Program-made: the position numbers and the translations under genes
The notes under the pieces: model-generated
What the model saw: the letters and a program-made list of their open reading frames with translations, nothing else
Told to the model about the DNA's origin: nothing
The model's database searches: none
Source of the DNA: a virus
Taxonomy: Duplodnaviria; Heunggongvirae; Uroviricota; Caudoviricetes
Reading direction: 5' to 3' (one strand)
Length of the DNA stretch: 39,356 bases
Virus record (IMG/VR): IMGVR_UViG_2671180568_000005
In this document: in pieces, positions 1,681 to 39,356 of the stretch
Position numbering within the stretch: the stretch's first letter is position 1
How the letters are laid out: every line of letters begins with the position of its first letter

Positions 1681-1749
1681 GATTAGCCCCTCCAACGGAT
1701 AAATTAACTAAACACTCCTTGCGATATGTAATTCGCTCAATGTGTAGAG

Positions 1750-13523: not shown

Positions 13524-13555
13524 AAGGACAGCCCCATCACGGGGCTGTTTTTTCA
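13524..13555. terminator. Bidirectional terminator hairpin (cagcccc-atca-ggggctg) flanked by A and T runs
   Basis: Read directly; overlaps the stop of the portal gene. Confidence 0.6.
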
Positions 13556-14583
13556 TCAAGAAGAGCATAAGAGTTAAAACGGATCACCTCTTCGCCAAGC
13601 CAGTCATTGATGTGCTTCATAGCCTCCATGACGGGCATCAGCTCGTTAATTGCGTAAACCCGCGCTGCCTTCTCCACATCGCCAAACGCACTTTTTTCGC
13701 CCGGCATCGCCCCCATCAGTTGCGGCGGAACGCGGTGCGCAGCCAGCACATCATCACGGGATGCCGCCTTAACATTCATGAATTCATCTTTTGCGGTGAT
13801 CTGCTGGAACGGCAAAATTTGCACCCCCTCTTTGCCCCCGTTGGGCGCATGAATGAGCACGTTTTTAAACGCACCACCACCACGTGCCCCCTGTAGCGTT
13901 TCTTTCAGGGAGTCCATGCTTTCGCGGTTTACCTGCGCTGCACCGATGTAGATGATGCACCCGGCGTGGGATCCGTTGTCGTAGTACAGTTTTCTGAACA
14001 TGTCCGCCGAATGAGAAAGGCTGGCCGAGAGTAATGCGCCAAGATATTCCGGCATGCCGTAGATTTCCTGGTTAATATCCGGATTCATCAGGTGGCACAC
14101 TTTGCCAGGACGAAACTGAAACGCGTCCTTGCCATCCTGCACATACCACCATGATTCAAGATCGCTTCCGCGTCGCATGTATTTCGCCAGGGCGTGCCGT
14201 AATTTAAGCGGTTCGCCGAGCATATTGCTTCGAAGCTCAAGGAATGCGTTACCGAACACAAACCAGTCCAGCGCCAGCGCCGAGAAATCCTGCCGGGAAA
14301 GCAGCGGGTGCGGGATGTAGCAACCGAGTAATACATTGCGCTTAAAGTAAAGCGCAGACTGATGCCAGGACGTTTGCCGGGCTGCTCTTGCCAGACCGTA
14401 CCAGTCCACCGGGGTTTCATACCACCGCCCGTTATCAGCACAGTACATATTGTCCAGCAGGTCATGCCCGGTCAGGCGATAAGGACCATCAAATGTGAAT
14501 GCACTGAGCGATGATTCTTTCCTGAGCGCATCAGCGAGATCAATGCGTGAACTCATGCGCACTTTTTTATTTTTTCTGCTCAT
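13537..14583 (-). CDS. Q: Portal protein (P2 gpQ-like)
   Basis: Size, position and divergent Q-P / O-N arrangement; start overlaps the terminase stop (ATGA). Confidence 0.85.
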   Translation of the reverse strand: MSRKNKKVRMSSRIDLADALRKESSLSAFTFDGPYRLTGHDLLDNMYCADNGRWYETPVDWYGLARAARQTSWHQSALYFKRNVLLGCYIPHPLLSRQDFSALALDWFVFGNAFLELRSNMLGEPLKLRHALAKYMRRGSDLESWWYVQDGKDAFQFRPGKVCHLMNPDINQEIYGMPEYLGALLSASLSHSADMFRKLYYDNGSHAGCIIYIGAAQVNRESMDSLKETLQGARGGGAFKNVLIHAPNGGKEGVQILPFQQITAKDEFMNVKAASRDDVLAAHRVPPQLMGAMPGEKSAFGDVEKAARVYAINELMPVMEAMKHINDWLGEEVIRFNSYALLDEKTAP

Positions 14584-16334
14584 CAGAACTCCATAACCGT
14601 GAAACGCTCGTTTTCTCCTTCGCCGCCAATTGGTTCGTTAATGACAGCAAGCATGGTTGCCCACGCAAGGTCGCCGTGGCTGATCCCCCTCGCGCGGTCC
14701 GTTTCGTAAGTGATAAAGCCGCCCGGTGTTTTCACCTTACGCACGGCGTTAAAGGCTGCGACCAGCTCGCGTTCGGCGCGATCGTATTCCCACCGCCCGG
14801 CACGCATTATTTGCAGCATTTTCAGTACCAGCGACCGTTTTGATGACAGCGTGAAGGTGTACGGAATAGCAGCAGGGAAAAACCGTTTCACTATCTGATA
14901 AACAGCCTCCCCGTTCCCGCCTGTCACATCAATGCCGATGTGTTCCACGTTGTAGCGACACGTGAACTCTTCAATGACTCTGGCCTGTTCTTCAAACTCC
15001 AGCCCCTGAACGCGTCGCGTCTCCACCGTTCGAAAACGGCCTCCAGGAACAGCCGGAGGAACCACCACGGACACAGCGCCGCTGTCGCCGTTTCCACTGC
15101 TGCCGTTTGCGTCATACCCAATCCATACCGGACGATTCCCCATCGGGCGGGGAGCAAAAGGTTTCCAGTCTTTCCAGTCGTCGTATCCGTCAACACCACA
15201 GCCAATCAGGATATTCAGGTTAAATGCCGATTCCCCTTCGCGGACAAACTCACACATATAGAGATTGAGGAACTCGTCTTCGGTGTTTTCATCACGAATT
15301 TCATCAATATCGGTGTGTTTCCAGCCGTGATTAACCACATCTTCCAGCGTGACAATTTGCCGCCACGTCCGGTCAGGGCAGATAAGCCCGTTATGCAGCG
15401 TTTTCCAGTCCACAGAAAAACGCTGGCGTTTATGCGTGGCCTTTTTCTCGTTCCAGCGGTCGCCGTTCCAGTAGGCGTATGCCTCGTGCGTTTCGGTGGA
15501 TGGCGTGGAGAAGTAGGTGCGCCGCAGTCCGCTGAGGGTTGCCATAGCGCCAGCCACCTTGCGCAGTTCAGCAAAGCGACTGACCCAGAAAAATTCATCA
15601 AAATAAAAATTGCCCGTATAGGACTGTGCCGACGCAGCAGAAGTGCCGAGAAAATGCAGCTCTGCGCCGTTGGAGAGGATGATTTTATCGCCCCCTTTCA
15701 GCTCCACATCAACTTCAGCCGCAGCCTTCTGAATAATGCTTTTAAACTGGAACGCCTGACGACGCGACGCAGACAAAAAAATCTGGTTACGCTGGTAAGG
15801 TTGCGCCACATCGTCACGCAGCGCCATCAGCAGTGCTTCCTGTGCAAAATACCAGGTCGCCCCAATCTGTCGGGATTTCAGGATCATCCTGTTACGTATC
15901 CCGGCTTCCCTGCAAAGGGTCAGGGAGTCAAACCAGCCCCGCTGATGCCACTCCAGCCTGCTGATGATTTTTTCCCGCAGTGCGGCAATCTGTTCCGGCG
16001 TGAAATGATTTTTGAGTTTTTTCGCCCGGCCTTTCTTTCCTGTGGCCGTCGCATCCGGCTGGCCATCATGCAGTTTTTTAAGCTGCCGGGTCAGCAGGTC
16101 TATTTCCTTAAAGTCACCGCCTGTTTTATTCTGTTTTTCAGTAAGCTGGATGAGGCGCGCATCGATGGACTGCGTGACACGCTGCACGGGTGGCGTTTCA
16201 TCCCACTGGTCGCGTTTTTTCCACGCATAAATCGTGTTCGGGTTTATTCCCATCAGACGTGATATTTCTGCGGGCGGATAACCCTGCCAGTAAAGTTGCC
16301 GCGCACGCTGGCGCACAAAAGCGTCCTGAATCAT
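14583..16334 (-). CDS. P: Terminase large (ATPase) subunit (P2 gpP-like)
   Basis: 583-aa ORF beginning MIQDAFVRQRARQLYWQGYPPAEISRLMG; position upstream of the portal gene. Confidence 0.85.
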   Translation of the reverse strand: MIQDAFVRQRARQLYWQGYPPAEISRLMGINPNTIYAWKKRDQWDETPPVQRVTQSIDARLIQLTEKQNKTGGDFKEIDLLTRQLKKLHDGQPDATATGKKGRAKKLKNHFTPEQIAALREKIISRLEWHQRGWFDSLTLCREAGIRNRMILKSRQIGATWYFAQEALLMALRDDVAQPYQRNQIFLSASRRQAFQFKSIIQKAAAEVDVELKGGDKIILSNGAELHFLGTSAASAQSYTGNFYFDEFFWVSRFAELRKVAGAMATLSGLRRTYFSTPSTETHEAYAYWNGDRWNEKKATHKRQRFSVDWKTLHNGLICPDRTWRQIVTLEDVVNHGWKHTDIDEIRDENTEDEFLNLYMCEFVREGESAFNLNILIGCGVDGYDDWKDWKPFAPRPMGNRPVWIGYDANGSSGNGDSGAVSVVVPPAVPGGRFRTVETRRVQGLEFEEQARVIEEFTCRYNVEHIGIDVTGGNGEAVYQIVKRFFPAAIPYTFTLSSKRSLVLKMLQIMRAGRWEYDRAERELVAAFNAVRKVKTPGGFITYETDRARGISHGDLAWATMLAVINEPIGGEGENERFTVMEF

Positions 16335-16488
16335 TGCTCCCCCTGAGTAATTACAGGAAGATTACCCGCGCGCGAAACCGTTCTCCTTACCCCCCTGTTC
16401 TGGCCGTTTTCTTACAACAAAAGCCCTTTGTATCAGCCTGTTACGCTTTGCCATCATGACTGAAGAACCAGTCAGAGGGGCAAAAACT
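16335..16488. promoter_or_regulatory. Divergent late-promoter region between P and O
   Basis: Position only; a clean Ogr-type TGT-N12-ACA element was not found by eye. Confidence 0.35.
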
Positions 16489-21150: not shown

Positions 21151-21292
21151 CCCACCCACATGGGGAAACCTCGGAATATGGGGCGACCGCCTTCTGGATG
21201 CACTGGAAACCTGTAACGCGGATAAACGGGCCATTGCTGAACTGGATAAGAGAATAGCCGAACCGACACACCAGACGGGAGTAACACAATGA
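21011..21292 (+). CDS. Rz1-like outer-membrane lipoprotein spanin, overlapping the Rz gene out of frame
   Basis: Signal peptide with lipobox LLTGC and a proline-rich mature region; starts inside the Rz reading frame. Confidence 0.65.
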   Translation: MNAPTLCLTLVLLTGCAGTQNEPGPAPSVRLIPQTLTMPVTPPPFPDPPTWGNLGIWGDRLLDALETCNADKRAIAELDKRIAEPTHQTGVTQ

Positions 21293-23169
21293 CCAGTAAG
21301 AACTTTGCACTGATTACAGCCATGACACAGGCTGAACTGACTCAAAAGGTGAATGAACATCTTGCGAAAGGGTGGCATCTTCAGGGGGAGACGCGGGTTG
21401 CCTACGAACCCGGCACCCCGTGGTATCTAATGCAGGCAATGGTGGCCGATGGCACTACAGACATCTCACCTGATTCCCCCCAGCACGGCAGCGTGCCGGA
21501 GTGGTATTACGTGGTGGTACTTGCTGGTCAATCCAATGCCATGTCATATGGTGATGGAATGCCGCTGCCGGATTCTTACGATGCGCCCCACCCACGCATT
21601 AAGCAACTGGCCCGTCGCAACACAGTGACTCCCGGTGGTAAAGCATGCGCATTTAACGACATCATTCCGGCAGACCACTGCCTGCATGATGTTCAGGATA
21701 TGAGCGCACTGAATCATCCGAAGGCAGACCTGAGCAAAGGGCAGTACGGCTGTGTCGGCCAGGGCTTACATATTGCCAAAAAACTGCTCCCGTATATCCC
21801 GAATAACGCGGGGATCCTGCTGGTACCATGCTGCCGTGGTGGTTCGGCATTCACTCAGGGCGCGGAGGGAACATTCAGTACGACCACGGGGGCCAGCCAG
21901 GATTCGGCGCGCTGGGGTGTGGGTAAACCGTTATATCAGGACCTGATTGCGCGCACTAAAGCTGCATTACAGAAGAACCCGAAAAATGTGTTGCTGGCGG
22001 TGTGCTGGATGCAGGGCGAATTTGACATGAGCGCTGCCACCTACGCACAGCAACCGGACCTGTTCACGGCCATGCTGAAGCAGTTCCGTACTGACCTTTC
22101 CGGATTTAACGCGCAGTGCCATGGCGGCAGTGCTGCAGTTGTACCGTGGATTTGTGGCGACACGACGTATTACTGGAAAAACACATACGGCACACAGTAT
22201 GACTCCGTCTACGGCGCGTACAAAAACAGGGAGAGCGACAACGTTTTCTTTGTGCCGTTCATGACCGACGGTAACGGCAACAACACACCCACCAACTTAC
22301 CGGCAGAAGACCCGGATATTGCTGATGCAGGTTATTACGGCGCGCAATCCCGTAGTAATGGTAATTGGGTATCGTCAAATCGTCCGACACATTTCAGTTC
22401 ATGGGCGCGCAGGGGCATTATTTCGGATCGCCTGGCAACCGCTATTCTGAACGCAGTTGGTCGAACCAGCGCCTTCATCAGCGGTACCGCACCGGAGATT
22501 AAACCCTCNNNNNNNNNNNNNNNNNNNNNNNNNNNNNNNNNNNNNNNNNNNNNNNNNNNNNNNNNNNNNNNNNNNNNNNNNNNNNNNNNNNNNNNNNNNN
22601 NNNNNNNNNNNNNNNNNNNNNNNNNNNNNNNNNNNNNNNNNNNNNNNNNNNNNNNNNNNNNNNNNNNNNNNNNNNNNNNNNNNNNNNNNNNNNNNNNNNN
22701 NNNNNNNNNNNNNNNNNNNNNNNNNNNNNNNNNNNNNNNNNNNNNNNNNNNNNNNNNNNNNNNNNNNNNNNNNNNNNNNNNNNNNNNNNNNNNNNNNNNN
22801 NNNNNNNNNNNNNNNNNNNNNNNNNNNNNNNNNNNNNNNNNNNNNNNNNNNNNNNNNNNNNNNNNNNNNNNNNNNNNNNNNNNNNNNNNNNNNNNNNNNN
22901 NNNNNNNNNNNNNNNNNNNNNNNNNNNNNNNNNNNNNNNNNNNNNNNNNNNNNNNNNNNNNNNNNNNNNNNNNNNNNNNNNNNNNNNNNNNNNNNNNNNN
23001 CACGGTTACTCCGAAACTGAATGGAGTGGCTGGCCCGGCATTCCAGGTCATAAAAGACAGTCTGACACTGGGGCTGAATGCGCTGACGTTAACTGATATC
23101 ACTAAAAATGCCGCGTACGGCGTCGATATCGGCAGCCTGGTGCTGGAAATCAATAATCCCGCAGTATAA
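21289..23169 (+). CDS. NanS-p-like sialate O-acetylesterase (DUF1737-like N-domain plus SASA/SGNH domain); interior replaced by a 492-N gap
   Basis: N-terminus ITAMTQAELTQKVNEHLAKGWHLQGE and esterase block VVVLAGQSNAMSYGDG (GQSN motif); residues encoded by 22509-23000 are unknown. Confidence 0.65.
   Translation: MTSKNFALITAMTQAELTQKVNEHLAKGWHLQGETRVAYEPGTPWYLMQAMVADGTTDISPDSPQHGSVPEWYYVVVLAGQSNAMSYGDGMPLPDSYDAPHPRIKQLARRNTVTPGGKACAFNDIIPADHCLHDVQDMSALNHPKADLSKGQYGCVGQGLHIAKKLLPYIPNNAGILLVPCCRGGSAFTQGAEGTFSTTTGASQDSARWGVGKPLYQDLIARTKAALQKNPKNVLLAVCWMQGEFDMSAATYAQQPDLFTAMLKQFRTDLSGFNAQCHGGSAAVVPWICGDTTYYWKNTYGTQYDSVYGAYKNRESDNVFFVPFMTDGNGNNTPTNLPAEDPDIADAGYYGAQSRSNGNWVSSNRPTHFSSWARRGIISDRLATAILNAVGRTSAFISGTAPEIKPXXXXXXXXXXXXXXXXXXXXXXXXXXXXXXXXXXXXXXXXXXXXXXXXXXXXXXXXXXXXXXXXXXXXXXXXXXXXXXXXXXXXXXXXXXXXXXXXXXXXXXXXXXXXXXXXXXXXXXXXXXXXXXXXXXXXXXXXXXXXXXXXXXXXXXXXXXXXXXXXXXXXXTVTPKLNGVAGPAFQVIKDSLTLGLNALTLTDITKNAAYGVDIGSLVLEINNPAV
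22509..23000. other. Gap (492 N) inside the esterase gene
   Basis: Run of n characters. Confidence 0.99.
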
Positions 23170-26113: not shown

Positions 26114-26714
26114 TTCGTTGTTACCACCATCAGCCAGCAATTTCATGCGTTGTGCCGAAGCCGTCGGAACACGCATTACAGACATTCCGGTAGACCTCAA
26201 CACGCTGTGGTCGCCGGACACCTGCCCGGTGCATCTGCTGCCTTATCTCGCCTGGGCGTTTTCCGTTGACCGCTGGGATCGCAACTGGCCGGAAGAGACA
26301 AAGCGACAGGTGATTCGTGATGCATGGCTGATACACCGACACAAAGGGACCATCAGCGCACTGCGAAGAGCCGTGGAGCCTCTCGGCTACCTGATTGAAG
26401 TAAAGGAGTGGTGGCAACTCAACGAGGAGCCGGGAACATTTCGCATTGTTGTCGGAGTACTTGATCAGGGCATCACCGATGAAATGTATCAGGAACTTGA
26501 GCGCCTTATTGCGGATGCAAAACCAGTAAGTCGCCATCTGACGGGGCTGGCGATCAGCCTGAGTGTGAACGGAAAGATTTTCGTTGGTACGGGATGCTAT
26601 CACGGCGATGCCCTGACGGTTTATCCCTACACCCCGGAGTCCATTATTGTCGAAGGGGATTATTTCCCTGCCCCGGCCATTCATTTAATTGATAATCTGA
26701 GAGTAAACGCATGA
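26106..26714 (+). CDS. I: Baseplate/tail protein (P2 gpI-like)
   Basis: MSNSLLPP...LWSPDTCPVHLLPYLAWAFSVDRWD parallels gpI. Confidence 0.85.
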   Translation: MSNSLLPPSASNFMRCAEAVGTRITDIPVDLNTLWSPDTCPVHLLPYLAWAFSVDRWDRNWPEETKRQVIRDAWLIHRHKGTISALRRAVEPLGYLIEVKEWWQLNEEPGTFRIVVGVLDQGITDEMYQELERLIADAKPVSRHLTGLAISLSVNGKIFVGTGCYHGDALTVYPYTPESIIVEGDYFPAPAIHLIDNLRVNA

Positions 26715-28440
26715 CAGTGAAATACTACGCCATTCTGACTAATCAGGGCGCGGCACGACTGGCTAACGCGACGATGCTCGGCAGTAAGCTGAATCTGACG
26801 CGAATGGCCGTTGGTGATGCAAATGGTGTGTTACCAACACCAGACCCTGCACAAACAAAACTGATTAACCAGAAACGCATTGCACCGCTGAATCTTCTGA
26901 GTGTTGACCCTAACAATCAGAGCCAGATTATTGCGGAGCAAATCATCCCTGAAAGCGAGGGTGGATTCTGGATCCGTGAGATTGGTCTTTATGATGATAA
27001 AGGTGTACTCATTGCGGTGGCAAACTGCCCGGAAACGTACAAACCGCAGTTGCAGGAAGGCAGTGGACGCACCCAGACTATCCGCATGATTCTGGTTGTC
27101 ACGAACACCGAAGCCATCACGCTGAAAATCGACCCGTCTGTGGTTCTGGCAACCCGCAAATATGTGGATGATAAAATATCAGAGCACGAGCAGTCACGAC
27201 GTCACCCGGACGCCTCGCTGACCGCAAAAGGCTTTGTTCAACTTAGCAGTGCCACGGACAGTCAATCAGAAACTGAGGCTGCCACGCCGAAGGCTGTGAA
27301 AATCGCGTATGATCTGGCCCGGGGAAAATACACAGCCCAGGATGCAACAACGACCCGTAAAGGGATCGTACAACTGAGCAGCGCCACCAACAGCACCTCT
27401 GAAACGCTGGCCGCCACACCAAAAGCCGTCAAGGCTGCATACGACCTTGCAGCCGGCAAGGCGCCCGTCAGCCACACTCACCCGTGGAGTCAGATAACGG
27501 GAGTGCCTGCTGCCTCGCTGACGGCAAAAGGCACCGTACAACTGAGCAGTGCCATCAACAGCACGTCTGAAATACTGGCCGCCACACCGAAAGCGGTCAA
27601 GGCTGCATACGATCTGGCAGCCGGCAAGGCGCCCGTCAGCCACACTCACCCGTGGAGTCAGATAACGGGAGTGCCTGCTGCCTCGCTGACGGCAAAAGGC
27701 ACCGTACAACTGAGCAGTGCCATCAACAGCACGTCTGAAATACTGGCCGCCACACCGAAAGCGGTCAAGGCTGCATACGATCTGGCAAACGGAAAACAAC
27801 CGGCAGATGCCACGCTCACTGCTCTGGCAGGACTTGCCACTGCAGCAGATCGGTTGCCTTATTTTACCGGAGCAGACCGCGCAGCGCTGGCAACCCTTAC
27901 AGCTATTGGTCGCGCTATTATCGCTAAGGGCAGTATAAAAGATGTCCTCAATTACCTTGGTTTNNNNNNNNNNTTGGTTTGGGGGAAGGCTCTGCATTGC
28001 CTGTTGGTGTACCGGTTCCATGGCCCACCGCCACACCGCCAGCAGGCTGGTTACAGTGCAACGGAGCTACGTTCACCAAAGAACAATATCCTGTTCTGGC
28101 CAGAGTCTACCCGACCCTCCGTCTTCCCGATTTGCGCGGTGAGTTTATCCGTGGATGGGACGGTGGTCGCAAGGTTGATACCGGGCGTGCGCTACTTTCA
28201 TTTCAGGAAGGGACTATCGTATCCGGTTTTGATGATAATGATAACGGAGATATCAGTTCGCTCGGCTCTACACAATACGGATTTGGTGACGCTTTAACCT
28301 CTAATCAACTGGGGGTCTTAAATGGCAAAAAGTGGATATTTGATGCATCCTCTAAAGGTGCACAAAGATATGACTGGTGGGCTTATGTATCAGCTCGCCC
28401 CCGCAATATCGCATTTAACTATATCGTGAGGGCGGCGTGA
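26711..28440 (+). CDS. H: Tail fibre protein (gpH-like): constant part fused to a variable tip; reading frame apparently broken by the 10-N gap
   Basis: N-terminus MTVKYYAILTNQGAARLANA; repeated fibre motif TAKGxVQLSSA...TPKAVKAAYDLA; after the gap the frame 27979..28440 continues with GEGSALPVGVPVPWPTATPPAGW and ends NYIVRAA. Confidence 0.75.
27451..27786 (+). repeat. Perfect tandem duplication of a 168-bp (56-codon) unit inside the fibre gene
   Basis: 27451-27618 repeats at 27619-27786; two older diverged copies of the motif lie upstream. Confidence 0.85.
27964..27973. other. Scaffold gap (10 N) at the constant/variable fibre junction
   Basis: Run of n characters; ttggttt is present on both sides. 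Confidence 0.99.
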
Positions 28441-28446
28441 TACCGT

Positions 28447-29061
28447 TCAACTGGCAAGTGCCAGTGGTGCTTCCGGCCAGCTGATTTCAGGTGCCGTGCT
28501 GATATCCAGTGCGTTCAGCTCGTCGATATAATCCAGCACGGCGTTCAGTTTTGCCGTTTCTTCTGGTGTCAGACTGCGACCAGCACGCAGTTTGAGGTTG
28601 ATAAGATCGACGGACGCCATCGCCTGTTTCACCCGTTGCTGGCGTTGCTGTCTGGCAACCTCCAGTTCTGCGGTTCGCTGCCGTTCAGTATCGGTTACCC
28701 ACGCCTCACCGTTCCAGGTATCCCATGGCGTGGCTGGCTGTTTTGTGGTGGTGTCCGCCGGGTAATCACCCGGTTGGGTAATCAGAACGGGGTTACCGTT
28801 CTCCGTGCTGTATACCGTCTCGCCGCGGTGATCAGGCACATGCTCCCACCCGTTCAGCGTGGCAGTCCGGCAAACCACGTAACCCGAAATTGCCTCCGGC
28901 GGTGCATCGGCGCACGAATGTGCCGGAGTACCCACCCCAAGGGCGAGATACTCCACAGAGGATGAGGTGTATTCCCGGGTTTCCTCGTCATAGTGATATA
29001 CAGTGATATCGCCCGCTACAGTGGCGATACCGTTTTCATCCAGAACTGCAGTGTTACTCAT
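28447..29061 (-). CDS. Tail fibre assembly chaperone (Tfa/gpG/Mu U family)
   Basis: 204 aa with a C-terminal ...LDYIDELNALDISTAPEISWPEAP tail typical of Tfa proteins; adjacent to the alternative fibre tip. Confidence 0.75.
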   Translation of the reverse strand: MSNTAVLDENGIATVAGDITVYHYDEETREYTSSSVEYLALGVGTPAHSCADAPPEAISGYVVCRTATLNGWEHVPDHRGETVYSTENGNPVLITQPGDYPADTTTKQPATPWDTWNGEAWVTDTERQRTAELEVARQQRQQRVKQAMASVDLINLKLRAGRSLTPEETAKLNAVLDYIDELNALDISTAPEISWPEAPLALAS

Positions 29062-29630
29062 TAAACTGCCCTCACAATGTAATTAAGTGCAATGCTACGG
29101 GGTCTGACAGTGATACCCTTCGCATACCCGCTTCTGATAGAGGTCAGAATAGTAGCCTGCATACCATTGTCTGACATTGCTATGACAGGATCGCTGAATG
29201 TTGTCCCGTCCGGCATTTTAAAGCTGCCCTCACGAAGGTCTGTAATGGAATCTTCATTGTTGAATCCCATGCCGACTATCCCCGAGGTTCCCGTAGTGTC
29301 CTGGTTATAATAATCCAGCATTGCTGTTCTTAACAGCGTTGCCCCTTGTGCGGACAGCAACTTACGTCCTGTATCAACTTTGCGCCCGTCATCCCATCCA
29401 CGGATAAACTCACCGCGTAAATCGGGAAGACGGAGGGTCGGGTAGGCTCTGGCCAGAACAGGATATTGTTCTTTTGTAAAGGCGCGCCCGTCGCACTTTA
29501 ACCAGCCTGCTGGCGGTGTGGCGGTGGGCCACGGAACAGGCACACCAACGGGTAGCGCCGAGCCTTCTCCTAAACCAACGTTTTCGTTTTTATCCCTACC
29601 TATACCAACTCTGTATTTTTCACGAAACAA
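29061..29630 (-). CDS. Alternative tail-fibre C-terminal cassette, promoterless and on the opposite strand
   Basis: Shares GLGEGSALPVGVPVPWPTATPPAGWL and the C-terminal NYIVRA motif with the tip at 27979-28440; begins with TTG and has no independent ribosome-binding site. Confidence 0.7.
   Translation of the reverse strand: MFREKYRVGIGRDKNENVGLGEGSALPVGVPVPWPTATPPAGWLKCDGRAFTKEQYPVLARAYPTLRLPDLRGEFIRGWDDGRKVDTGRKLLSAQGATLLRTAMLDYYNQDTTGTSGIVGMGFNNEDSITDLREGSFKMPDGTTFSDPVIAMSDNGMQATILTSIRSGYAKGITVRPRSIALNYIVRAV
29565..29590. promoter_or_regulatory. Candidate right crossover site for the invertase (ttctcctaaaccaacgttttcgtttt), mirrored across the gap at about 27955-27990
   Basis: AAACC/GGTTT half-site pattern reminiscent of hix/gix/cix sites; position immediately upstream of the invertase gene. 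Confidence 0.35.
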
Positions 29631-29644
29631 AGAGGATGTTTTTT

Positions 29645-30244
29645 ATGCAAATTGGCTATATTCGTGTGTCAACAAACGACCAGAACACGGATTTACAACG
29701 CAATGCACTGAACTGCGCAGGATGTGAACTGATTTTTGAAGATAAAATCAGCGGAACGAAATCAACCAGACCGGGATTGAAAAAACTGCTCAGAACGCTA
29801 TCAGAAGGAGATACGCTGGTTGTCTGGAAGCTGGACAGACTGGGCAGAAGTATGAAACACCTGATCACGCTTATTGAGGAATTGCGGGAAAAAGGTGTTA
29901 ATTTCCGTAGTCTGACGGACAGCATTGACACGTCAACACCCATGGGGCGTTTCTTTTTTCACGTCATGGGGGCTTTAGCCGAAATGGAACGTGAATTAAT
30001 TGTAGAACGTACACTGGCTGGGCTGGCAGCAGCACGCGCACAAGGACGCATTGGCGGACGTCGCCCGAAGTTGACAAAAGAACAACACGAGCAAATAGCG
30101 AGGCTGATTAAAAACGGTCATGACAGGAAACAACTGGCGATCATTTACGACATCGGCATATCGACGATTTATCGTTATCACCCTGTAGGCGATATACAGG
30201 CTGAAGAAACAACCAGGCAGACTCAGGAAAATGAAAACCGCTAA
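29645..30244 (+). CDS. Serine DNA invertase of the Hin/Gin/Pin/Cin family
   Basis: MQIGYIRVSTNDQNTDLQRNAL...VVWKLDRLGRSMKHLI...GRFFFHVMGALAEMERELI with the catalytic Ser in YIRVST and a C-terminal HTH. Confidence 0.9.
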   Translation: MQIGYIRVSTNDQNTDLQRNALNCAGCELIFEDKISGTKSTRPGLKKLLRTLSEGDTLVVWKLDRLGRSMKHLITLIEELREKGVNFRSLTDSIDTSTPMGRFFFHVMGALAEMERELIVERTLAGLAAARAQGRIGGRRPKLTKEQHEQIARLIKNGHDRKQLAIIYDIGISTIYRYHPVGDIQAEETTRQTQENENR

Positions 30245-30263
30245 TCTGACCATTAGCGGTTTT
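30234..30263. terminator. Bidirectional terminator hairpin aaaaccgctaat-ctgacc-attagcggtttt between the convergent invertase and U genes
   Basis: 12-bp perfect stem flanked by A and T runs. Confidence 0.65.
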
Positions 30264-30270
30264 GCGTTAA

Positions 30271-30765
30271 TCAAAACAGCCCTTTAACAGAGCTGGCCGC
30301 GCTGTTGAGGGATGATGTGACCTTATCTTTGAAGCCGGACAGCATATCACTGAACGATGAGGATTGCAGACGCTCCCGCAAATCCTCATCACAGCGTTCA
30401 AGAGTCAGTGAAAATTCTATCTTTTTCGCCTTACCATAGCGATCAAACTCGGAACGGGTCGTATTCGTTTCAGTCAGTACATACATGCCGTAAATCTGCC
30501 CGACACCATCAATCAGAGGCCAGGGGCGTCCTGTATATGCCTGCGTGGTCAGCAACGAAAGCGACACTTCGCCACCTGTAATTTCAGGATAAAGCACGCC
30601 GGAAAGCACGATGCGATCATCACCTGCACCGATATACTGCCAGCTTGCTGAGCGGTTTACGCGCTCATTTTTCACATGCCGCCAGCTTTTGTTTTGCTGT
30701 AACTGCTGATGCGGCAATGTGCGCAGCTCAAAAACAAACATGCCGTAGATCATCATCATGGCCAT
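30271..30765 (-). CDS. U: Tail protein (P2 gpU-like)
   Basis: FVFELRTLPHQQLQQNKSWRH...RIVLSGVLYPEITGG parallels gpU. Confidence 0.8.
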   Translation of the reverse strand: MAMMMIYGMFVFELRTLPHQQLQQNKSWRHVKNERVNRSASWQYIGAGDDRIVLSGVLYPEITGGEVSLSLLTTQAYTGRPWPLIDGVGQIYGMYVLTETNTTRSEFDRYGKAKKIEFSLTLERCDEDLRERLQSSSFSDMLSGFKDKVTSSLNSAASSVKGLF

Positions 30766-30771
30766 GACTCC

Positions 30772-33588
30772 TCAATCTTTATCGTAAAAACTGCCACGCC
30801 CGGCACGGGCACGCCGTTCCATTTCTGCCCTGACCATTTCACCGACCAGTTTCGCCAGTTCGCGGGGATTCTGCGTAACAACGTTATGCAGATGAACATG
30901 AATTTCACCACCAAATCCGGAGGCAACAGGCTCCCGGTTACGGGAAGTTACAGGAACTGATGCCACTGGAGATCGTATGGCCTCCGCCACCGGGCGGGAG
31001 CTGGCCGCAACAACAGGGACCAGCGCCGGAGGCAGCGGAGCCGGGACCACGGGAGTGATATTCATTGCGGGGGCAGGCTTACTGACCTGTGCAATCTTCC
31101 GCTCCTGCCACTCCCCACGAACAGCAAGTGCGCGGGGCAGGTTCTTAAAGACAATATCGCCGGGGCCAATACGTTTTTTTGTCTCATCAACCAGCTTACC
31201 TGTGTTATCAGCAATTTTGCTGAGTCTGCGCAGCGTACCGGTATTGCTGTCTGTGAGCGGTTTGTTGTCTTTGGGTTTATCACCTCCGGTGCCATTGCCA
31301 TTTTCCACAGGCTTCGGCGGATTGATTTTCGCCAGGTCCCCCTGAAGTAAGGCAACCTTGTCCTGAAGAATGGCCGCACGCTGTGCGTCTTCGATTTTCT
31401 TGCGCGCCCTTTCCGCTTCATCCGGAAGGACGCCAAGTTTTTCAAGTATCCACGCCAGCGTATCCAGCAACATTTTTGCAGGCGTCAGAACAAGTTGTAA
31501 CGCACCGCCAAGAACGTTACCGAATATCTCGCCAGCACTGGTACATTTATCCAGCGTTTCCTTGCTGGATTCCATCGGTGACAGCAGCGATTTAAACCAG
31601 TTAAACACCTGGCTGATCCCGCTTCCGATTGCGTCAAAAACAGGACCAAACCGTTCAAAGGTTTCGCGCAACGGGTTCAGCCTTTCCATAATCCCGTTGA
31701 ACACCCCGGCATAAAACGCCTTAATGGGTTCCCAGTATTTCCAGATGAGAACCGCCGCAGCCACAAACGCAGCAGCAATCAATCCGACCGGACTGAACAG
31801 CGCCCCGATAGCGCCTCCCAGCAAAGAAACGGAACCCGTCACCATTCCCCACAGCGCAGGCAACACCCTGACGACATTCATTGACCGGGTAAGAATGTCA
31901 AAACCAAGACGCAGGGTGGCCAGCTTCCCGTAAAGCACCCCAATAACCAGCGACAACGAGCCAATCGTTGCAGTCATTGCCAGCAACGCACCGCCTGCTA
32001 TCAGTAGCTGGCGCGTCAGTACCGGATGGGCCTGCGCCAGCGAGGTGACTTTTTCAAGCACCCGCGTGAGCCACTGCGTGACAGAACGCAGCGGACCGTC
32101 AACCAGATCACTGATGCGAATACGAAGACCTTCCCATGCGCTGTCGAGATTTTTCAGGTCCCCATCAAGATTATCGGCCATTACTTTTGCAACGCGATCG
32201 GACTCTCCCCTTGCCCCCTGCAATTCTCTGGTCAGTTTTTGCAGCTCTCCTGAACCAGCCGCCGCAACAAGCGTCTGCAAACCAACGAACGCCTCTTCTC
32301 CGGCGATGTCCTTGAAGAAGGAGACCTGGTCCACCTGTCCGTATTTTTGTGTCGCCTTATAGAGATCAAGCAGCACATCCTCCATCGGGCGCATTTTGCC
32401 TCTGGCGTCAGCAACTGACACCCCCAGCTCTTTCAGTGCATCAGCCGCAGCTTTTGGCGGTGATGCAAGGCGGGACAGACTTGCGCGCATGGCCGTACCA
32501 GCATCGCTTCCGCGAAGACCATTATTGGCAAGCATCCCGGCCATGGCTGCCGCTTCTTCAAGACTGATACCAAGTTTTGCGGCAACCGGACCGGTATACT
32601 TCATGGTTTCGCCCAGCGCGCGTAAATCAGTATTGGTCCGGGTGAATGCCGCTGTCAGCGTATCGCCAACCCGGTCCATTTGATCGGCTGTCAGGTTGAA
32701 CTGTGTGAGGATATTGGAGCCTATATCCGCCGTCTCGCCGAGTTCGACGCCACCTGCCAGCGCCATATTAAGAACACCGGGCAATGCGGCCTGAATGGCC
32801 TGCGGAGTAAAACCAGCCATTGCCAGAAAGCTCTGTCCACTGGCGGCATCACTCGCAGTAAACTGTGTTTCAGAGCCAAGTTTTAACGCCTGCTCACGCA
32901 GCGCCTTAAACTGCGGGCTGTTTTTGTCGATTCGCGTCAGTGCCTGAACGCGGGACATCTCTTTCCCGAACCCGATCGCAGGCTGCAAAAAACGCCCGGC
33001 AGCATAGCCGCCAGCCGCTGCCGCACCAATTGTCAGCGCACCACCTGTTTTCAGTTTTCCCGCGGTTTCCTGCGCGCGCGAATACCGCTCACGCGCCCGC
33101 GTTACACGCGCAAGCGCCTGCCGTTCGCGTTCAAGCTGGTTGTTGTACTGTTCGGTGCGTCTGATGGCCTGCTGGATGGTGTTATCGCTGCCTGTCAGGG
33201 AAATGCCGTGGCGTTTCAGCTCTCCGCCAAGTTCCCGCATTTTCTGAATTTCCCGTGTGCGCGATTCATTCAGGCGTTCAAGCCGGGTGCTTAACTGCTG
33301 CATCAGCTTTTGTTGTTTTTCGCTGAGCACTGTACCCGTGCGTTGTAACTGATTAAGGGCGTTAAGCTGGCGTCGTGCTTTCACGATGCCCGCATCCGCT
33401 TTACTGACAGCGTCACGGGCGCGCTCAAATGAACGCGCCTGACGCTCGAGATTTTTGATCGCCCCCTGCGTTCGCTGGATGGAGTCACCAAACTGCCCCA
33501 TCAGGCGGCGGGCGTTTTCGGCAGGCCGGGTCAGCCTGTCAACGGCGCTGAAAGCGACCCGGATATCAAGAGTCTTCATTGTCTGCAT
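30772..33588 (-). CDS. T: Tail tape measure protein (P2 gpT-like)
   Basis: 938 aa, coiled-coil and Gly/Ala-rich transmembrane-like middle; position between E and U. Confidence 0.85.
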   Translation of the reverse strand: MQTMKTLDIRVAFSAVDRLTRPAENARRLMGQFGDSIQRTQGAIKNLERQARSFERARDAVSKADAGIVKARRQLNALNQLQRTGTVLSEKQQKLMQQLSTRLERLNESRTREIQKMRELGGELKRHGISLTGSDNTIQQAIRRTEQYNNQLERERQALARVTRARERYSRAQETAGKLKTGGALTIGAAAAGGYAAGRFLQPAIGFGKEMSRVQALTRIDKNSPQFKALREQALKLGSETQFTASDAASGQSFLAMAGFTPQAIQAALPGVLNMALAGGVELGETADIGSNILTQFNLTADQMDRVGDTLTAAFTRTNTDLRALGETMKYTGPVAAKLGISLEEAAAMAGMLANNGLRGSDAGTAMRASLSRLASPPKAAADALKELGVSVADARGKMRPMEDVLLDLYKATQKYGQVDQVSFFKDIAGEEAFVGLQTLVAAAGSGELQKLTRELQGARGESDRVAKVMADNLDGDLKNLDSAWEGLRIRISDLVDGPLRSVTQWLTRVLEKVTSLAQAHPVLTRQLLIAGGALLAMTATIGSLSLVIGVLYGKLATLRLGFDILTRSMNVVRVLPALWGMVTGSVSLLGGAIGALFSPVGLIAAAFVAAAVLIWKYWEPIKAFYAGVFNGIMERLNPLRETFERFGPVFDAIGSGISQVFNWFKSLLSPMESSKETLDKCTSAGEIFGNVLGGALQLVLTPAKMLLDTLAWILEKLGVLPDEAERARKKIEDAQRAAILQDKVALLQGDLAKINPPKPVENGNGTGGDKPKDNKPLTDSNTGTLRRLSKIADNTGKLVDETKKRIGPGDIVFKNLPRALAVRGEWQERKIAQVSKPAPAMNITPVVPAPLPPALVPVVAASSRPVAEAIRSPVASVPVTSRNREPVASGFGGEIHVHLHNVVTQNPRELAKLVGEMVRAEMERRARAGRGSFYDKD

Positions 33589-34104
33589 TCCCGCTGCGAA
33601 GTGCCGCCCGCTCGCGCCAGCTAACCACTTCGCCGGGCGTCATCATGAAGATTTCGGCGGGCGACCAGTTAAAAATGGCGGCAATATCCGCCACCAGATC
33701 TTCGATGTGCTCAAAGCACACCAGGGTGATTACGCTGCCGTCTCCTGCACGCTCTTCGCGCCAGAGTCTGGCTCGCTCATAAAATTTACAGCCACAGCGC
33801 ACAACTGAATAAAATCGCGTGACGACATTTTTTTAATCATCACTTCATCCAGTCGTGGCGAGGTCACGCGAGGCAACAGCGTGAACATGGTATCCGCTTT
33901 CAGATTCAGCACATCAGACAGCGACAGACCACGCAGGGATCCCGCCTGCTCAATAGCCCCGGTGATCTCCACATATGTGATTTTTTCGCCACCACGCTCA
34001 ATTGGCCGGGAAAGTTTTACACCACGTTCGACAGCCATATCCTCACCTGCCGTCACATCATCCGCTACGGTGTTATTCCGGGTTTCAGTATCGATATCTT
34101 TCAT
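33566..34104 (-). CDS. Tail assembly chaperone E+E' made by programmed -1 frameshift at AAATTTT (33781-33787)
   Basis: The E frame (33730..34104) and the overlapping -1 frame (33566..33802) meet at a canonical X_XXY_YYZ heptamer; arrangement as in P2 E/E'. Confidence 0.6.
33730..34104 (-). CDS. E: Tail assembly chaperone (P2 gpE-like), zero-frame product
   Basis: 124-aa ORF directly upstream of the tape measure gene. Confidence 0.75.
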   Translation of the reverse strand: MKDIDTETRNNTVADDVTAGEDMAVERGVKLSRPIERGGEKITYVEITGAIEQAGSLRGLSLSDVLNLKADTMFTLLPRVTSPRLDEVMIKKMSSRDFIQLCAVAVNFMSEPDSGAKSVQETAA

Positions 34105-34159
34105 CAGTTGTCTCCTTTTCAGTCAGAGGCGACGCACTGCGCCGCCTGCATATTACTTA

Positions 34160-34672
34160 TCAGCCAAGCCCAAGCGCGGAACGAATGCGGTCAGGCACAA
34201 TGTCCTTGCCGTCCTTCCGGTAGATGTGGTTCAACAGGTCGATTTCCCACAGCGGGCGATCGTTAACGCTCAGCTTGTAGTAGGTGTTTTTGACAGCGTA
34301 AGTGTGTGATGTGGCTTCGCCCTGTTTGGCCTCCCCCATATCAATTTCCGTCACACGCCCGCGCATCTCGATTTCATACAGATCGCTTTCTGCATCGGTG
34401 TAGTATTCACCCGCAAAACGCAGCAGCGTGCCGTCAATCGTGCCGCCATATTTAAGGAACAGCGCACGAACAGCTCCCCCCATAACAAAACTCGCATCAA
34501 GCGCGGAGTCGTCCAGACCGAGATCAATACTTACCGCCCCCATCATGCCACCACCACGATAGCTGTCGGTTTTGCGCGTCAGTTTGGGCGGCGTGACGGA
34601 CGTCACCTTACCCACTTCGTTTTCACCATCCACAAACAGCGTAAAAAAGCGAAGATGTTTTGGTACAGCCAT
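34160..34672 (-). CDS. FII: Tail tube protein (P2 gpFII-like)
   Basis: 170 aa; position after the sheath gene. Confidence 0.85.
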   Translation of the reverse strand: MAVPKHLRFFTLFVDGENEVGKVTSVTPPKLTRKTDSYRGGGMMGAVSIDLGLDDSALDASFVMGGAVRALFLKYGGTIDGTLLRFAGEYYTDAESDLYEIEMRGRVTEIDMGEAKQGEATSHTYAVKNTYYKLSVNDRPLWEIDLLNHIYRKDGKDIVPDRIRSALGLG

Positions 34673-35856
34673 CAGGCACCTCCCAGCACCGCAAATGCGG
34701 GACCAAAGAATTCATCAGTAAACGACTGGTAAAGCTCCATGTCTTCCAGCGGCGGAACGGGCGTATATTTGTAGCGAATACGCACACGCCCCTGACGTAA
34801 ATTCGTGGTGCTGTTATCCACGATGTCATACCAGCACTCCGCGCCAATCAGTTTCCCGGCAGTAACCAGTGAATCCAGTTTTGCCCTGATGGCACTGATA
34901 ACATCCTTCACGTTCGCAGGCGTCAGTGGACTGTCGATGGTTTCAAACTGCGCTTCCGCAATTGAATCAGCCAGCACCTGTGCGGTTCGGGTATACACCT
35001 CAAAGATGTAGGCGTTCGTTTCCGGTGTGCGGTTGCCCCAGAAGCGGAACCCGTTACGACGAATAATGGTCGTGATTTCTTTGTTGTTGAGGCTGTTGGC
35101 ATCACTGTCTTCGGCCTGTAACGACCAGAACACATGCCTCGACATCCCCAGCACATTTTTAACCGGAACGTTGGACAGCGATTTGTGCCAGCCCTGCTCA
35201 TGGTCAATGTACGCACGAAGGCCGCACGCATAAGCAGGCGCGGGGAACGTTTCGTTTTTGCCACTTTTCGGGTTGTAGGCGATGAAGTCAGGCCATAAGA
35301 GCATCACCTCACGTTCGTTGAATTTCTGGCGGTAGGTAATCGCCTCAGCCATCGTGTTACAACCATGACATGCGGCATACACAAACGCGCGCAGTTTACC
35401 CGCAATCACGCACAGGGATTTTGTCACCGCCTCCGTGTCCAGCTCCGGCGCGGCCAGAATACGCGGACGGTATCCGATGCTTTCATCCTGCTCTGCAACA
35501 AGCAGCGCATACATCCCCGTATAGCTGCCGTCAGATTCAGAACCACCGATAACCAGTTGATCCTGCGTCTTTCCGTTTTCTTCTTTGTGTTCAGCCACGC
35601 GAACGACGATCACCTTTGTGCTCACCTGGTCTGCGATGGCCTTAAGCGCACGATAAAGCGTCCCCGTTGTCCCGCATTTTCCCAGCACGTCATTGACGCG
35701 GGTCAGCAGTGTGGGCTTGTTCAGCGGGAACAGCTTCGCGTCCGCATCATCCGCCGTTGCCACGATACCGATAACGCTGGAATCAACATCATTAATCGCT
35801 GTTACCAGGTCGGTACTTTCCGTAACACGGGCACCATGAAAACGAGTTTCACTCAT
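34672..35856 (-). CDS. FI: Tail sheath protein (P2 gpFI-like)
   Basis: 394 aa; AAGGGG ribosome-binding site upstream. Confidence 0.85.
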   Translation of the reverse strand: MSETRFHGARVTESTDLVTAINDVDSSVIGIVATADDADAKLFPLNKPTLLTRVNDVLGKCGTTGTLYRALKAIADQVSTKVIVVRVAEHKEENGKTQDQLVIGGSESDGSYTGMYALLVAEQDESIGYRPRILAAPELDTEAVTKSLCVIAGKLRAFVYAACHGCNTMAEAITYRQKFNEREVMLLWPDFIAYNPKSGKNETFPAPAYACGLRAYIDHEQGWHKSLSNVPVKNVLGMSRHVFWSLQAEDSDANSLNNKEITTIIRRNGFRFWGNRTPETNAYIFEVYTRTAQVLADSIAEAQFETIDSPLTPANVKDVISAIRAKLDSLVTAGKLIGAECWYDIVDNSTTNLRQGRVRIRYKYTPVPPLEDMELYQSFTDEFFGPAFAVLGGA

Positions 35857-36013
35857 AGCTTCAGCCCCTTGTATCCGTTAAATGATTCGGCAACAATCAT
35901 CACCCACCACGCGCGTAATCTCACCCCTGCGCCGTTCTCCCGCCACGGCGACAACAAAAAGCAGTAACCCCCTCCGCACGCACATGCGACCATGCCGCAC
36001 AGGGAGGGAGCAG
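35857..36013. promoter_or_regulatory. Divergent intergenic region between FI (minus) and D (plus); presumed late promoters
   Basis: Position only. Confidence 0.3.
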
Positions 36014-37123
36014 ATGACCGACACCACCATGCAATTGCTCAGTCAGGGCACAGACCCCGTGAAAATGCCGGATTTTGATATTCTCGCGGAGGGTAAAACG
36101 CTGTCAGGCGTGGCAGAGTGCCTGATGAGCCTGTCACTGACCGACAACCGGGGATTTGAGGCGGACCAGCTCACCATCACGCTGGATGATGCGGATGGTC
36201 AGTTGCTGCTACCGCCACGGGGCGCGCGCCTGACGGTTCTCATTGGCTGGAAAGGAGAACCGCTGACAGAAAAAGGCACTTACATTGTTGATGAAATCGC
36301 TCACGAAGGACCGCCGGACAGGCTGACGGTTTCAGCCAGAAGCGCAGATTTTCGGGATGAATTTAACGTTAAACGTGAGGTGTCCTGGCATGATGTGACC
36401 GTTGAGCGCGTGGTATCCGCCATCGCTCATCGGTACGGTCTGAAACCACAAATCAGCGAAATGCTGATGGATATTGAAATCGACCACGCTGACCAGACCG
36501 AAGAAAGCGACATGTCCTTCCTTACGCGCATGGCGGAAATGCTGGGCGCAATCACTACGGTAAAAAGCGGTAATCTGTTATTCATCATGCCAGGCGGTGG
36601 CGTGAACGCACAGGGCCAGCCGTTGCCCTCGTTCGCCATCACGCGCAGCAGTGGCGATCACCATCAGTTCCGCATTGCTGACCGCGAAGCGTATACGGGG
36701 GTACGCGCTTACTGGCTTGATCTTAATTACGGGAAAAAGAAAAAAGTCAGCGTGAAACGCCGCAAACCGCCAAAACCCAAAAAGGAGAAAAGCAGCAGCC
36801 GTGAAGGTGATTATATGGAAGGCGCGGAAGGCAATGTGTTTGTGTTACGCAAGACCTATCAGAACGAACAGGCAGCAAGACGCGCAGCGGCGGCAAAGTG
36901 GCAGCAGCTACAACGCGGAGCCGCATCATTCTCCATCACGCTGGCGCGTGGACGTGCAGAACTCTACCCCGAAATGCATGGTACGGTAACAGGATTTAAA
37001 AGCGAGATTGATAATCAGGACTGGATCATTGCAAAAGCCGAGCACACTATTGATAACAGCGGCTTTACCACGCAGCTTGAGCTTGAGGCAAAAATCCCGG
37101 AATGGATAGCGGAAACAGAGTGA
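36014..37123 (+). CDS. D: Tail protein D (P2 gpD-like)
   Basis: Start at the ATG 6 nt after GGGAGGGA; the ORF track's upstream extension from 35882 is probably not translated. Confidence 0.8.
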   Translation: MTDTTMQLLSQGTDPVKMPDFDILAEGKTLSGVAECLMSLSLTDNRGFEADQLTITLDDADGQLLLPPRGARLTVLIGWKGEPLTEKGTYIVDEIAHEGPPDRLTVSARSADFRDEFNVKREVSWHDVTVERVVSAIAHRYGLKPQISEMLMDIEIDHADQTEESDMSFLTRMAEMLGAITTVKSGNLLFIMPGGGVNAQGQPLPSFAITRSSGDHHQFRIADREAYTGVRAYWLDLNYGKKKKVSVKRRKPPKPKKEKSSSREGDYMEGAEGNVFVLRKTYQNEQAARRAAAAKWQQLQRGAASFSITLARGRAELYPEMHGTVTGFKSEIDNQDWIIAKAEHTIDNSGFTTQLELEAKIPEWIAETE

Positions 37124-37165
37124 GCAACTTAGAATAGCGGCAGCACCACGTTAAGGGAGGTCGCT

Positions 37166-37426
37166 ATGTTCCGTTGTCCGCTTTGTGGCGCATCTGCCCG
37201 TATCCGCACCAGTCGTCCGGAAAATGATTCAAACACCGTGCGGCAAAAGTATTACCAGTGTAACAACCTGGAATGCGGCGTATGCTTCTCAACACTGGAA
37301 GCTTTCCATAAATTCACATCAAAACACGCCTCCGCCGTTCACTCTTCAGAAGGTATCCCGTGGCATGAGCTGCCAGCTTCACACAGGGGAAACAATCAGA
37401 TGAGTTTGCCTTTACCTCAGAACTAA
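37166..37426 (+). CDS. ogr: Late-gene transcriptional activator, Ogr/Delta zinc-finger family
   Basis: MFRCPLCGASARIRTSR...YYQCNNLECG with the Cys-X2-Cys...Cys-X4-Cys arrangement of Ogr. Confidence 0.8.
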   Translation: MFRCPLCGASARIRTSRPENDSNTVRQKYYQCNNLECGVCFSTLEAFHKFTSKHASAVHSSEGIPWHELPASHRGNNQMSLPLPQN

Positions 37427-37617
37427 CAGGCAGAATTGCCGGATTAACAAAAAAGCGATAGATTACGCGCGGGTGCCTTTCGGCTGATGGTCGGAGGGAA
37501 TACCCGAAGGCCAGATGTGGAAAGGCCCCGGAAAACATTTCTGTTTAACCGAGGCCCTAACATATCTACCTTAAGCAAGTGATAGGTTAGCGCCTCTCCA
37601 ACAAAGGAGCAAGCGCT

Positions 37618-37758
37618 ATGTCGCAAAAATCGCTTACGGCCATCACGTTCTGCGTGACGGTAATCCTCATCATCTGGATGCTACACGGTTCGCTGTGTGA
37701 AATACGGATGAGCTTCTGGGGAGCGGAGTTTGCGGCGTTCTTACAGTGTAAGCAGTAA
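37618..37758 (+). CDS. hok: Hok/Gef-family type I toxin (46 aa)
   Basis: MSQKSLTAITFCVTVILIIWMLHGSLCEIRMSFWGAEFAAFLQCKQ: transmembrane segment plus the SLCEIR and E-AAF motifs of Hok/Gef. Confidence 0.75.
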   Translation: MSQKSLTAITFCVTVILIIWMLHGSLCEIRMSFWGAEFAAFLQCKQ

Positions 37759-37852
37759 GGAAACCGCGACGGGGAAGGCAACTTCCCCGTCAATCGGTTG
37801 CCAGGGTAAAGGTCGAAAAGGCACCCTATTTCCAGTTGACGTGAACAACAAG

Positions 37853-37885
37853 CCCGCAGCGTAAAAACTGCGGGTTTTCTTTTTG
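37853..37885 (+). terminator. Rho-independent terminator (cccgcag ... ctgcggg followed by a T-run)
   Basis: Read directly downstream of the hok-like gene. Confidence 0.6.
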
Positions 37886-37916
37886 GTTCCCTCACTCATG
37901 AGGACACCAAAAAACA

Positions 37917-37948
37917 AAGCCCACAGCATAGAAGCTGTGGGCTTTTTG
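37917..37948 (+). terminator. Second terminator hairpin (gcccacagc ... gctgtgggc followed by ttttt)
   Basis: Read directly. Confidence 0.6.
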
Positions 37949-38021
37949 CATTCAAAGATGGACGTTATATGGACACTTAAAAATAAAATCCATTTATTTT
38001 CAAATGATTAAACCTCTACTT

Positions 38022-38041
38022 AAAGCGCCCGCAGGCGCTTT
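38022..38041. repeat. Candidate attR core (identical to 585-604), forming the serS-proximal terminator hairpin
   Basis: Perfect 20-bp direct repeat, 22 bp downstream of the serS stop. Confidence 0.6.
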
Positions 38042-38063
38042 TTAGATTCAGAAAAATTGGGTA

Positions 38064-39356
<1,293 letters not shown>

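Follow-up and report, generated by a model that had tools for sequence, protein, structure and literature searches.

In phage P2 the reference record places the tail genes FI, FII, E, E+E', T, U and D, followed by ogr, on one strand behind a single promoter, pF. The 39,356-nucleotide stretch analysed here (IMG/VR record IMGVR_UViG_2671180568_000005, hereafter the window) carries the same gene set, with U, T, E/E', FII and FI all on the minus strand (30271-35856) and D and ogr on the plus strand. Is such an order an error of assembly, a recent change in one genome or the ordinary state of a lineage, and from where would D be transcribed? A first-pass annotation, made from the sequence alone, had offered a lineage-specific arrangement, a large inversion and a scaffolding error as options, and had supposed that D requires independent late promoters. 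The explanation we consider likely is that the order is the normal one of its clade, that it stems from one old inversion, and that a single site in the spacer between FI and D probably activates transcription both ways.

Orientation of the tail block and continuity of its junctions

Gene identities were taken from Pfam profile matches, and the gene calls of the closed Escherichia coli PCN033 chromosome from its PGAP annotation. The block and its borders read as follows.

29645-30244, plus strand: serine DNA invertase of the Hin/Gin type, belonging to the tail-fibre switch and converging on U (Pfam Resolvase and HTH_7; 'recombinase family protein' in the PGAP annotation of PCN033)
30234-30263, unstranded: two-way intrinsic terminator hairpin, AAAACCGCTAAT-loop-ATTAGCGGTTTT, serving the invertase gene and the FI-U operon
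30271-30765, minus strand: tail gene U (Pfam Phage_P2_GpU, 5.5e-39)
30772-33588, minus strand: tape measure gene T (Pfam PhageMin_Tail, 1.6e-56)
33566-33787, minus strand: E' extension, reached by a predicted -1 frameshift at AAATTTT (33787-33781); PGAP has a 'GpE family phage tail protein' here
33730-34104, minus strand: gene E, tail assembly chaperone (Pfam Phage_TAC_7, 21.7 bits and so short of the 25-bit cut-off; 35% identity to P2 gpE)
34160-34672, minus strand: tail tube gene FII (Pfam Phage_tube, 2.1e-45)
34672-35856, minus strand: tail sheath gene FI (Pfam Phage_sheath_1, Gp18_domIII_N and Phage_sheath_1C)
35857-36013, unstranded: FI/D spacer of 157 bp, putative two-way late promoter region
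36014-37123, plus strand: baseplate hub gene D (Pfam Phage_GPD; PGAP start in PCN033 at the same base)
37166-37426, plus strand: late activator gene ogr (Pfam Ogr_Delta, PF04606, 52.5 bits against a 26.3-bit cut-off)

FI, FII, T, U and D score above their Pfam cut-offs, only E falling below, and tblastn against P2 gives 33-49% protein identity across FI, FII, E, T, U and D. The programmed -1 frameshift of E/E' also appears to be present: the slippery heptamer lies in the X XXY YYZ register, and the -1 frame is open, reads into ...ITLVCFEHIEDLVADIAAIF... and overlaps the start of T. The module is that of a P2-like (Peduoviridae) member in every tested respect except the order of the operon, FI through D no longer forming a single F operon on one strand.

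When gene identities and strands are set against the P2 reference record, the reversal of the FI-U block described in the first-pass annotation stands, and so does its account of the two edges. On one side, FI and D diverge across the 157-bp spacer, the start of D being that called by PGAP in PCN033. On the other, U and the invertase gene converge, and their stops flank a hairpin with a perfect 12-bp stem, for which the term bidirectional terminator is well supported by folding: -16.9 and -15.6 kcal/mol on the two strands, with a z of about -4.1 on both, and no shuffled sequence folded as well.

Could the FI-U contig simply have been placed in the wrong orientation? The window does contain scaffold gaps, as had been pointed out, in the form of three runs of N (88-97, 22509-23000 and 27964-27973). 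However, none of them lies within 2 kb of either junction, and the 7.8-kb block 29640-37430 forms a single alignment, at 100.0% identity, with the closed PCN033 chromosome, where PGAP annotates the same genes on the same strands. Over the wider region 26123-38500 the match to PCN033 is again in one piece, the sole difference in length being 10 Ns plus a 7-bp duplicated overlap at 27964-27973. Taken with the independent phage genomes that have the same order and with the junction counts in complete E. coli genomes (both given below), these observations lead us to reject a scaffolding error, to which we assign practically no probability.

The 10-N gap (27964-27973) falls within the left-hand crossover site of the tail-fibre switch, with TTGGTTT duplicated on either side of the Ns, and the closed PCN033 sequence is continuous across it (TACCTTGGTTTGGGGGAAGG). 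Because of this duplication and this continuity, the gap is to be read as a zero-length contig join at the switch site, by which the H reading frame is broken in the window; mixed read orientations probably caused the join.

Distribution and origin of the inverted order

A megablast search of phage genomes aligned window 29651-37500, collinearly and in one piece, with the Xuanwuvirus phages P88, P884B11, Shae_phiSM (PhiSM), 500465-2, PhiR44_2 and Chuche at 91-94% identity. On the strength of this match (91.8% to P88 and 93-94% to other members), which covers window 29651-37500, the window is a P88-like (Xuanwuvirus) prophage of the P2 family, adjoining serS. From the invertase gene to ogr, order and strands are identical in P88, P884B11, Shae_phiSM and 500465-2, the annotations of P88 and Shae_phiSM having the same strand pattern as the window, and they are identical in the PCN033 prophage as well. 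What varies with respect to Xuanwuvirus are the C-terminal modules of the fibre and the E gene, the E of the window being 74% identical to that of P88.

The arrangement extends beyond this genus. Using tblastn and gene maps, we found divergent FI and D genes in Salmonella phage SEN5 (Senquatrovirus; FI 56% and D 63% identity) and in the Klebsiella phages Kp4848-1 (Reipivirus, about 70%) and Kp4877-2 (Reginaelenavirus, about 68%), so that with P88 and Shae_phiSM the inverted order spans four Peduoviridae genera. The phages with at most 49% identity in FI that were found in both the FI and the D match lists, among them P2, SopEPhi, phiE52237, PHL101 and P37, are all collinear.

The same partition was seen in bacterial genomes. 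A profile scan for the D protein, with one genome per bacterial species, yielded 80 loci, and a genome scan confirmed about 430 D-encoding stretches. All 61 loci whose D is at least 61% identical to that of the window are inverted; 60 were scored as divergent automatically, and the remaining one, L044, has FI, FII and U on the minus strand upstream of D, with a damaged FI gene. Conversely, in 19 of 19 loci with D at 54% or less, U lies directly upstream of D on the same strand; wherever the flank was long enough to include FI, in 14 of these loci, FI too is collinear. The hosts of the inverted clade are Escherichia, Salmonella, Citrobacter, Klebsiella, Enterobacter, Kosakonia, Serratia, Erwinia, Pantoea, Pectobacterium, Brenneria, Edwardsiella, Yersinia, Hafnia, Providencia, Morganella, Xenorhabdus and Photorhabdus. 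One locus, L008 (NZ_JBQPOM010000071.1), comes from an assembly labelled 'Vagococcus sp. WN89Y', a Gram-positive organism, in which a 226-kb contig bears a 97% identical prophage block, probably through contamination or mislabelling.

The FI/D junction was detected, at a coverage of at least 80%, in 1358 of 5426 complete E. coli genomes, or about a quarter; of the 1414 that carry these genes, not one matched a synthetic collinear U-D junction. Because of these counts and of the 61 inverted loci among 61 close ones, we conclude that the inverted orientation is fixed in the clade and is how the tail genes are ordinarily arranged in a large group of P2-like prophages. Of the options offered at the outset, it is the lineage-specific arrangement that the synteny comparison upholds: all close relatives share the order, which makes it ordinary for the lineage. 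Inverted against collinear order marks a clean clade boundary within Peduoviridae, tracking D identity without exception in the 80 loci, and neither annotators nor synteny-based prophage tools should flag it as a misassembly.

As a discovery this carries little weight, the layout being standard in a very common prophage clade. The arrangement is already known, in the sense that it is visible in RefSeq annotations and in phages classified by the International Committee on Taxonomy of Viruses (ICTV). Text searches nevertheless found no mention of the inversion in the papers on P88 (PMC5285337), PhiSM (PMC6456863), SEN4/5 (PMC5261728), Serratia PP4 (PMC9826266) and Burkholderia P2-like phages (PMC3091744), nor in a 2026 survey of P2-like diversity (PMC13100340). 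A paper on Xenorhabdus tailocins was set aside as a precedent, as it concerns inversions of the fibre region and not of FI-U.

How did the order arise? P2-like phages of beta- and gamma-proteobacteria that stand further from the window have the collinear order, which would therefore be ancestral, the inverted one being a single derived character of the clade. The large inversion put forward earlier holds only if it is taken as ancient, fixed and basal to a clade of several genera, and fails as a recent change in this genome. The ancestor would have had the order of P2 and Fels-2, fibre genes - [pF FI FII E T U] - D - ogr; the segment with the F promoter and FI through U would have been inverted once and then fixed. 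As a result, U would have come to lie tail-to-tail with the upstream fibre/invertase module at the two-way terminator, and the Ogr-binding dyad of the F promoter would have come to abut the 5' end of D. The direction and the mechanism of this inversion are what we infer; two comparisons bear on which segment moved.

The first comparison is with Fels-2/SopEPhi-type phages (loci L070 and L078, and SopEPhi), where a fibre switch and a Hin-type invertase likewise stand directly before the tail block but the FI-U block is collinear with D. Indeed, with respect to L070 and L078 (invertase - FI...U - D - ogr) the window differs exactly by reversal of the interval from the 3' end of the invertase gene to the 5' end of D. 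The second concerns the F promoter. A box of the TGT-N12-ACA type lies 70-77 nt upstream of the FI start in P2 and the collinear loci, and members of the inverted clade have it beginning 65-79 nt from the FI ATG; this similar distance in both orders shows that pF travelled with FI.

With an invertase gene abutting the block, and with the genuine 226-nt inverted repeats of this invertase (27974-28199 and 29353-29578, the tail-fibre switch) and their crossover site only about 700 bp off, one may wonder whether the segment is still being switched by this Hin-type enzyme. These repeats are the only large ones, however, and no inverted repeat or Hin-type crossover-like site was found at the ends of the block (30250 and 35870). 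Moreover, the other orientation is absent from the 1414 E. coli genomes carrying the genes, and the order is shared by SEN5, Kp4848-1 and Kp4877-2, whose retrieved flanks gave no match to the invertase. The FI-U block was therefore rejected as a Hin/Gin/Cin invertible segment, having neither flanking crossover sites nor orientation polymorphism, and a currently switchable segment is exceedingly improbable.

The U-side junction (30265-30269) is a mosaic boundary. The junction of invertase and U occurs in no more than 621 E. coli genomes; in many others the match begins at about 30265, so that one and the same tail block is bordered by different fibre or invertase modules. Reverse insertion of a foreign tail cassette, with no inversion in place, could give such a boundary, with 621 genomes for the invertase-U junction against 1358 for FI/D. 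We hold this to be very improbable all the same: FI, FII, U and D have diverged from P2 to a similar degree (42-49%), their identities co-vary across the 80 loci, and the distance from box to FI is that of the collinear phages. A single old inversion in place is the reading we retain.

A predicted two-way late promoter between FI and D

TGT-N12-ACA is the common consensus of the four late promoters of P2, all of them Ogr-dependent (PMC3931495, citing Christie & Calendar 1985, Julien & Calendar 1995). In the P2 record, one activator-binding site (3057-3087) is annotated for both pP and pO, whose starts, 3016 and 3127, each lie 55.5 bp from the centre of the GTTGT-N12-CCA core. Two spacers of the window separate divergent late genes, P/O and FI/D, and the search for Ogr-type elements had a mixed outcome there. 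Exact TGT-N12-ACA occurs 4 times in the window, against 9.2 expected by chance, and in neither late spacer; once one mismatch was allowed and relatives were compared, and only then, a single TCT-N12-ACA dyad surfaced in each. The predicted elements are the following.

35934-35955, unstranded: Ogr-type activator dyad GTTCT-N12-ACAAC of the FI/D spacer (core TCT-N12-ACA at 35936-35953, centre 35944.5)
35901-35896, minus strand: predicted FI -10 hexamer GATGAT, ending 48.5 bp from the dyad centre; putative start about 35889
35985-35993, plus strand: predicted D extended -10, TG-c-GACCAT, ending 48.5 bp from the dyad centre; putative start about 36000
16397-16418, unstranded: dyad GTTCT-N12-ACAAC of the P/O spacer, the same motif as in FI/D
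16364-16359, minus strand: predicted P -10, TAATCT
16449-16457, plus strand: predicted O extended -10, TG-c-CATCAT

The motif GTT[GC]T-N12-ACAAC has three exact matches in 39 kb, against about 0.15 expected, and two of the three are the dyads of the divergent late spacers. The third (31494-31515, minus strand) lies inside gene T and may be due to chance or be an internal late promoter site. In FI/D, the single dyad is equidistant from two divergent -10-like hexamers, and the predicted starts fall at 55.5 bp on either side of its centre, as at P2 pP/pO. The geometry of P/O is the same, with the P hexamer ending at 16359 and the O hexamer at 16457; the true O start codon is 16489, and not the 16456 of a longer open reading frame (ORF). 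A generic sigma-70 scan of the FI/D spacer gave nothing useful, as expected for activator-dependent promoters.

These elements are conserved. When the spacers of the four genera are aligned, the orthologous site is a perfect GTTGT-N12-ACAA(C/T) in SEN5 and Kp4877-2. We also stacked 56 unique FI/D spacers of relatives on the box: 35 have TGT as their left half-site and with it a perfect TGT-N12-ACA, the other 21 have TCT, and ACAAC is nearly invariant, while the 12 nt between the half-sites take 43 different sequences. Outside the box, positions 2, 5 and 6 of the FI-side hexamer are conserved in 96-98% of the spacers, and on the D side the TGn-extended hexamer keeps its G (G125) in 88%, A2 (A128) in 95% and T6 (T132) in 89%.

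Because a conserved dyad stands symmetrically between two conserved -10-like elements, as at P2 pP/pO, FI-U and D-ogr probably share one two-way late promoter of the Ogr type. From a single symmetric site, Ogr would activate both operons, FI-FII-E/E'-T-U to the left and D-ogr to the right, each with a -10 element of its own. The parallel with pP/pO lies in one dyad centred between two divergent late operons, with the P2 starts at 55.5 bp and the -10 elements of the window ending at 48.5 bp. The differences are that the P2 site serves P and O, and not FI and D, and that starts and Ogr binding are known in P2, whereas both are only predicted in the window. As to the independent late promoters supposed in the first-pass annotation, two divergent core promoters do fit the spacer, but the likeliest arrangement is that one shared activator site drives both.

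Functional independence would mean that D-ogr is transcribed from an activator-independent sigma-70 promoter of the extended -10 type, the dyad acting for FI only. On the D side, the TGn extended -10 and a TT at -35 are indeed conserved, features that may lessen the need for an activator; furthermore, P2 ogr has its own promoter, and a TAGAAT is present here in the gap between D and ogr. Nevertheless, the distance from the dyad centre to the end of the D -10 is exactly 48.5 bp, which mirrors the FI side and fits the 55.5 bp of P2, and this spacing is kept across genera. Independent promoters, with D not needing Ogr, are a serious alternative but seem unlikely to us, and we keep to the shared two-way promoter.

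Several points weigh against the explanation as a whole. The half-site of the window itself is degenerate, TCT instead of TGT. The D-side hexamer GACCAT is weak, and the predicted leader of 14 nt is short. Anchoring the 56 spacers on the box favours the columns of the box, though not those of the flanking -10 elements. Finally, the breakpoints of the inversion carry no repeats that would point to its mechanism.

Compared with the F operon and ogr of P2, then, the window is alike in its gene set, in the E/E' frameshift, in its Ogr-family activator and in a dyad, about 73 nt upstream of FI. It differs in that P2 has one strand and one promoter, with the stop of U overlapping the start of D, and that in the window FI-U runs the other way and D-ogr forms a divergent unit of its own. 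We lean, with caution, towards the idea that the old inversion, by putting a symmetric Ogr site beside D, made a late promoter that had worked in one direction work in both and gave rise to the short D-ogr unit. The putative shared promoter and this resulting unit are the modest new point of the present analysis. If true, ogr would stand about 1.1 kb behind an Ogr-dependent promoter rather than at the end of a 6.5-kb operon, which would tighten the positive-feedback loop, and the locus would be an example of dyad-symmetric activator sites making operon inversions tolerable. For the study of how a zinc-finger activator of the Ogr type may act in two directions, the FI/D spacer offers a compact, naturally occurring test case.

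Three further observations concern the late spacers. Immediately upstream of the -10 elements on the D side and on the P side there is a conserved run of alternating G and C, CGCGCGC-like (35973-35983 and 16365-16374), and a conserved TCACGC-like element lies to the left of the FI/D dyad (35921-35926). In P88, a small 'hypothetical protein', SF19_gp50 (10173-10304 of the P88 locus L001, window about 35836-35967), is annotated across the FI start, the predicted promoter and the dyad; a similar ORF is annotated in many RefSeq E. coli genomes, but not in PCN033, and is probably a spurious call.

Other features of the prophage

The remaining landmarks of the window are these.

688-1695, minus strand: integrase, in the left part of the prophage together with an HTH repressor-like gene and replication gene A
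13537-16334, minus strand: portal and large terminase genes
From scaffold gene O onward, plus strand
38064-39356: host serS

The four cysteines of the 86-aa Ogr homologue are spaced C4-X2-C7-X24-C32-X4-C37, against X2/X22/X4 in P2. Between ogr and serS, at about 37618-37758, the annotations of PCN033 and P88 place a toxin gene of the Hok/Gef family; Rfam at its gathering threshold gave no match in 27000-39356, neither a Sok-type nor any other RNA. Directly after replication gene A, window 9670-10629 encodes an actin-like plasmid segregation protein of the ParM/StbA type (Pfam 3.6e-82), which is unexpected in an integrating P2-like prophage. Lastly, an ORF between the lysis and tail-completion genes (21289-23169), broken by the 492-N gap at 22509-23000, combines DUF1737 with a SASA-type sialate/carbohydrate acetylesterase domain and is likely a moron or a fibre-accessory enzyme.

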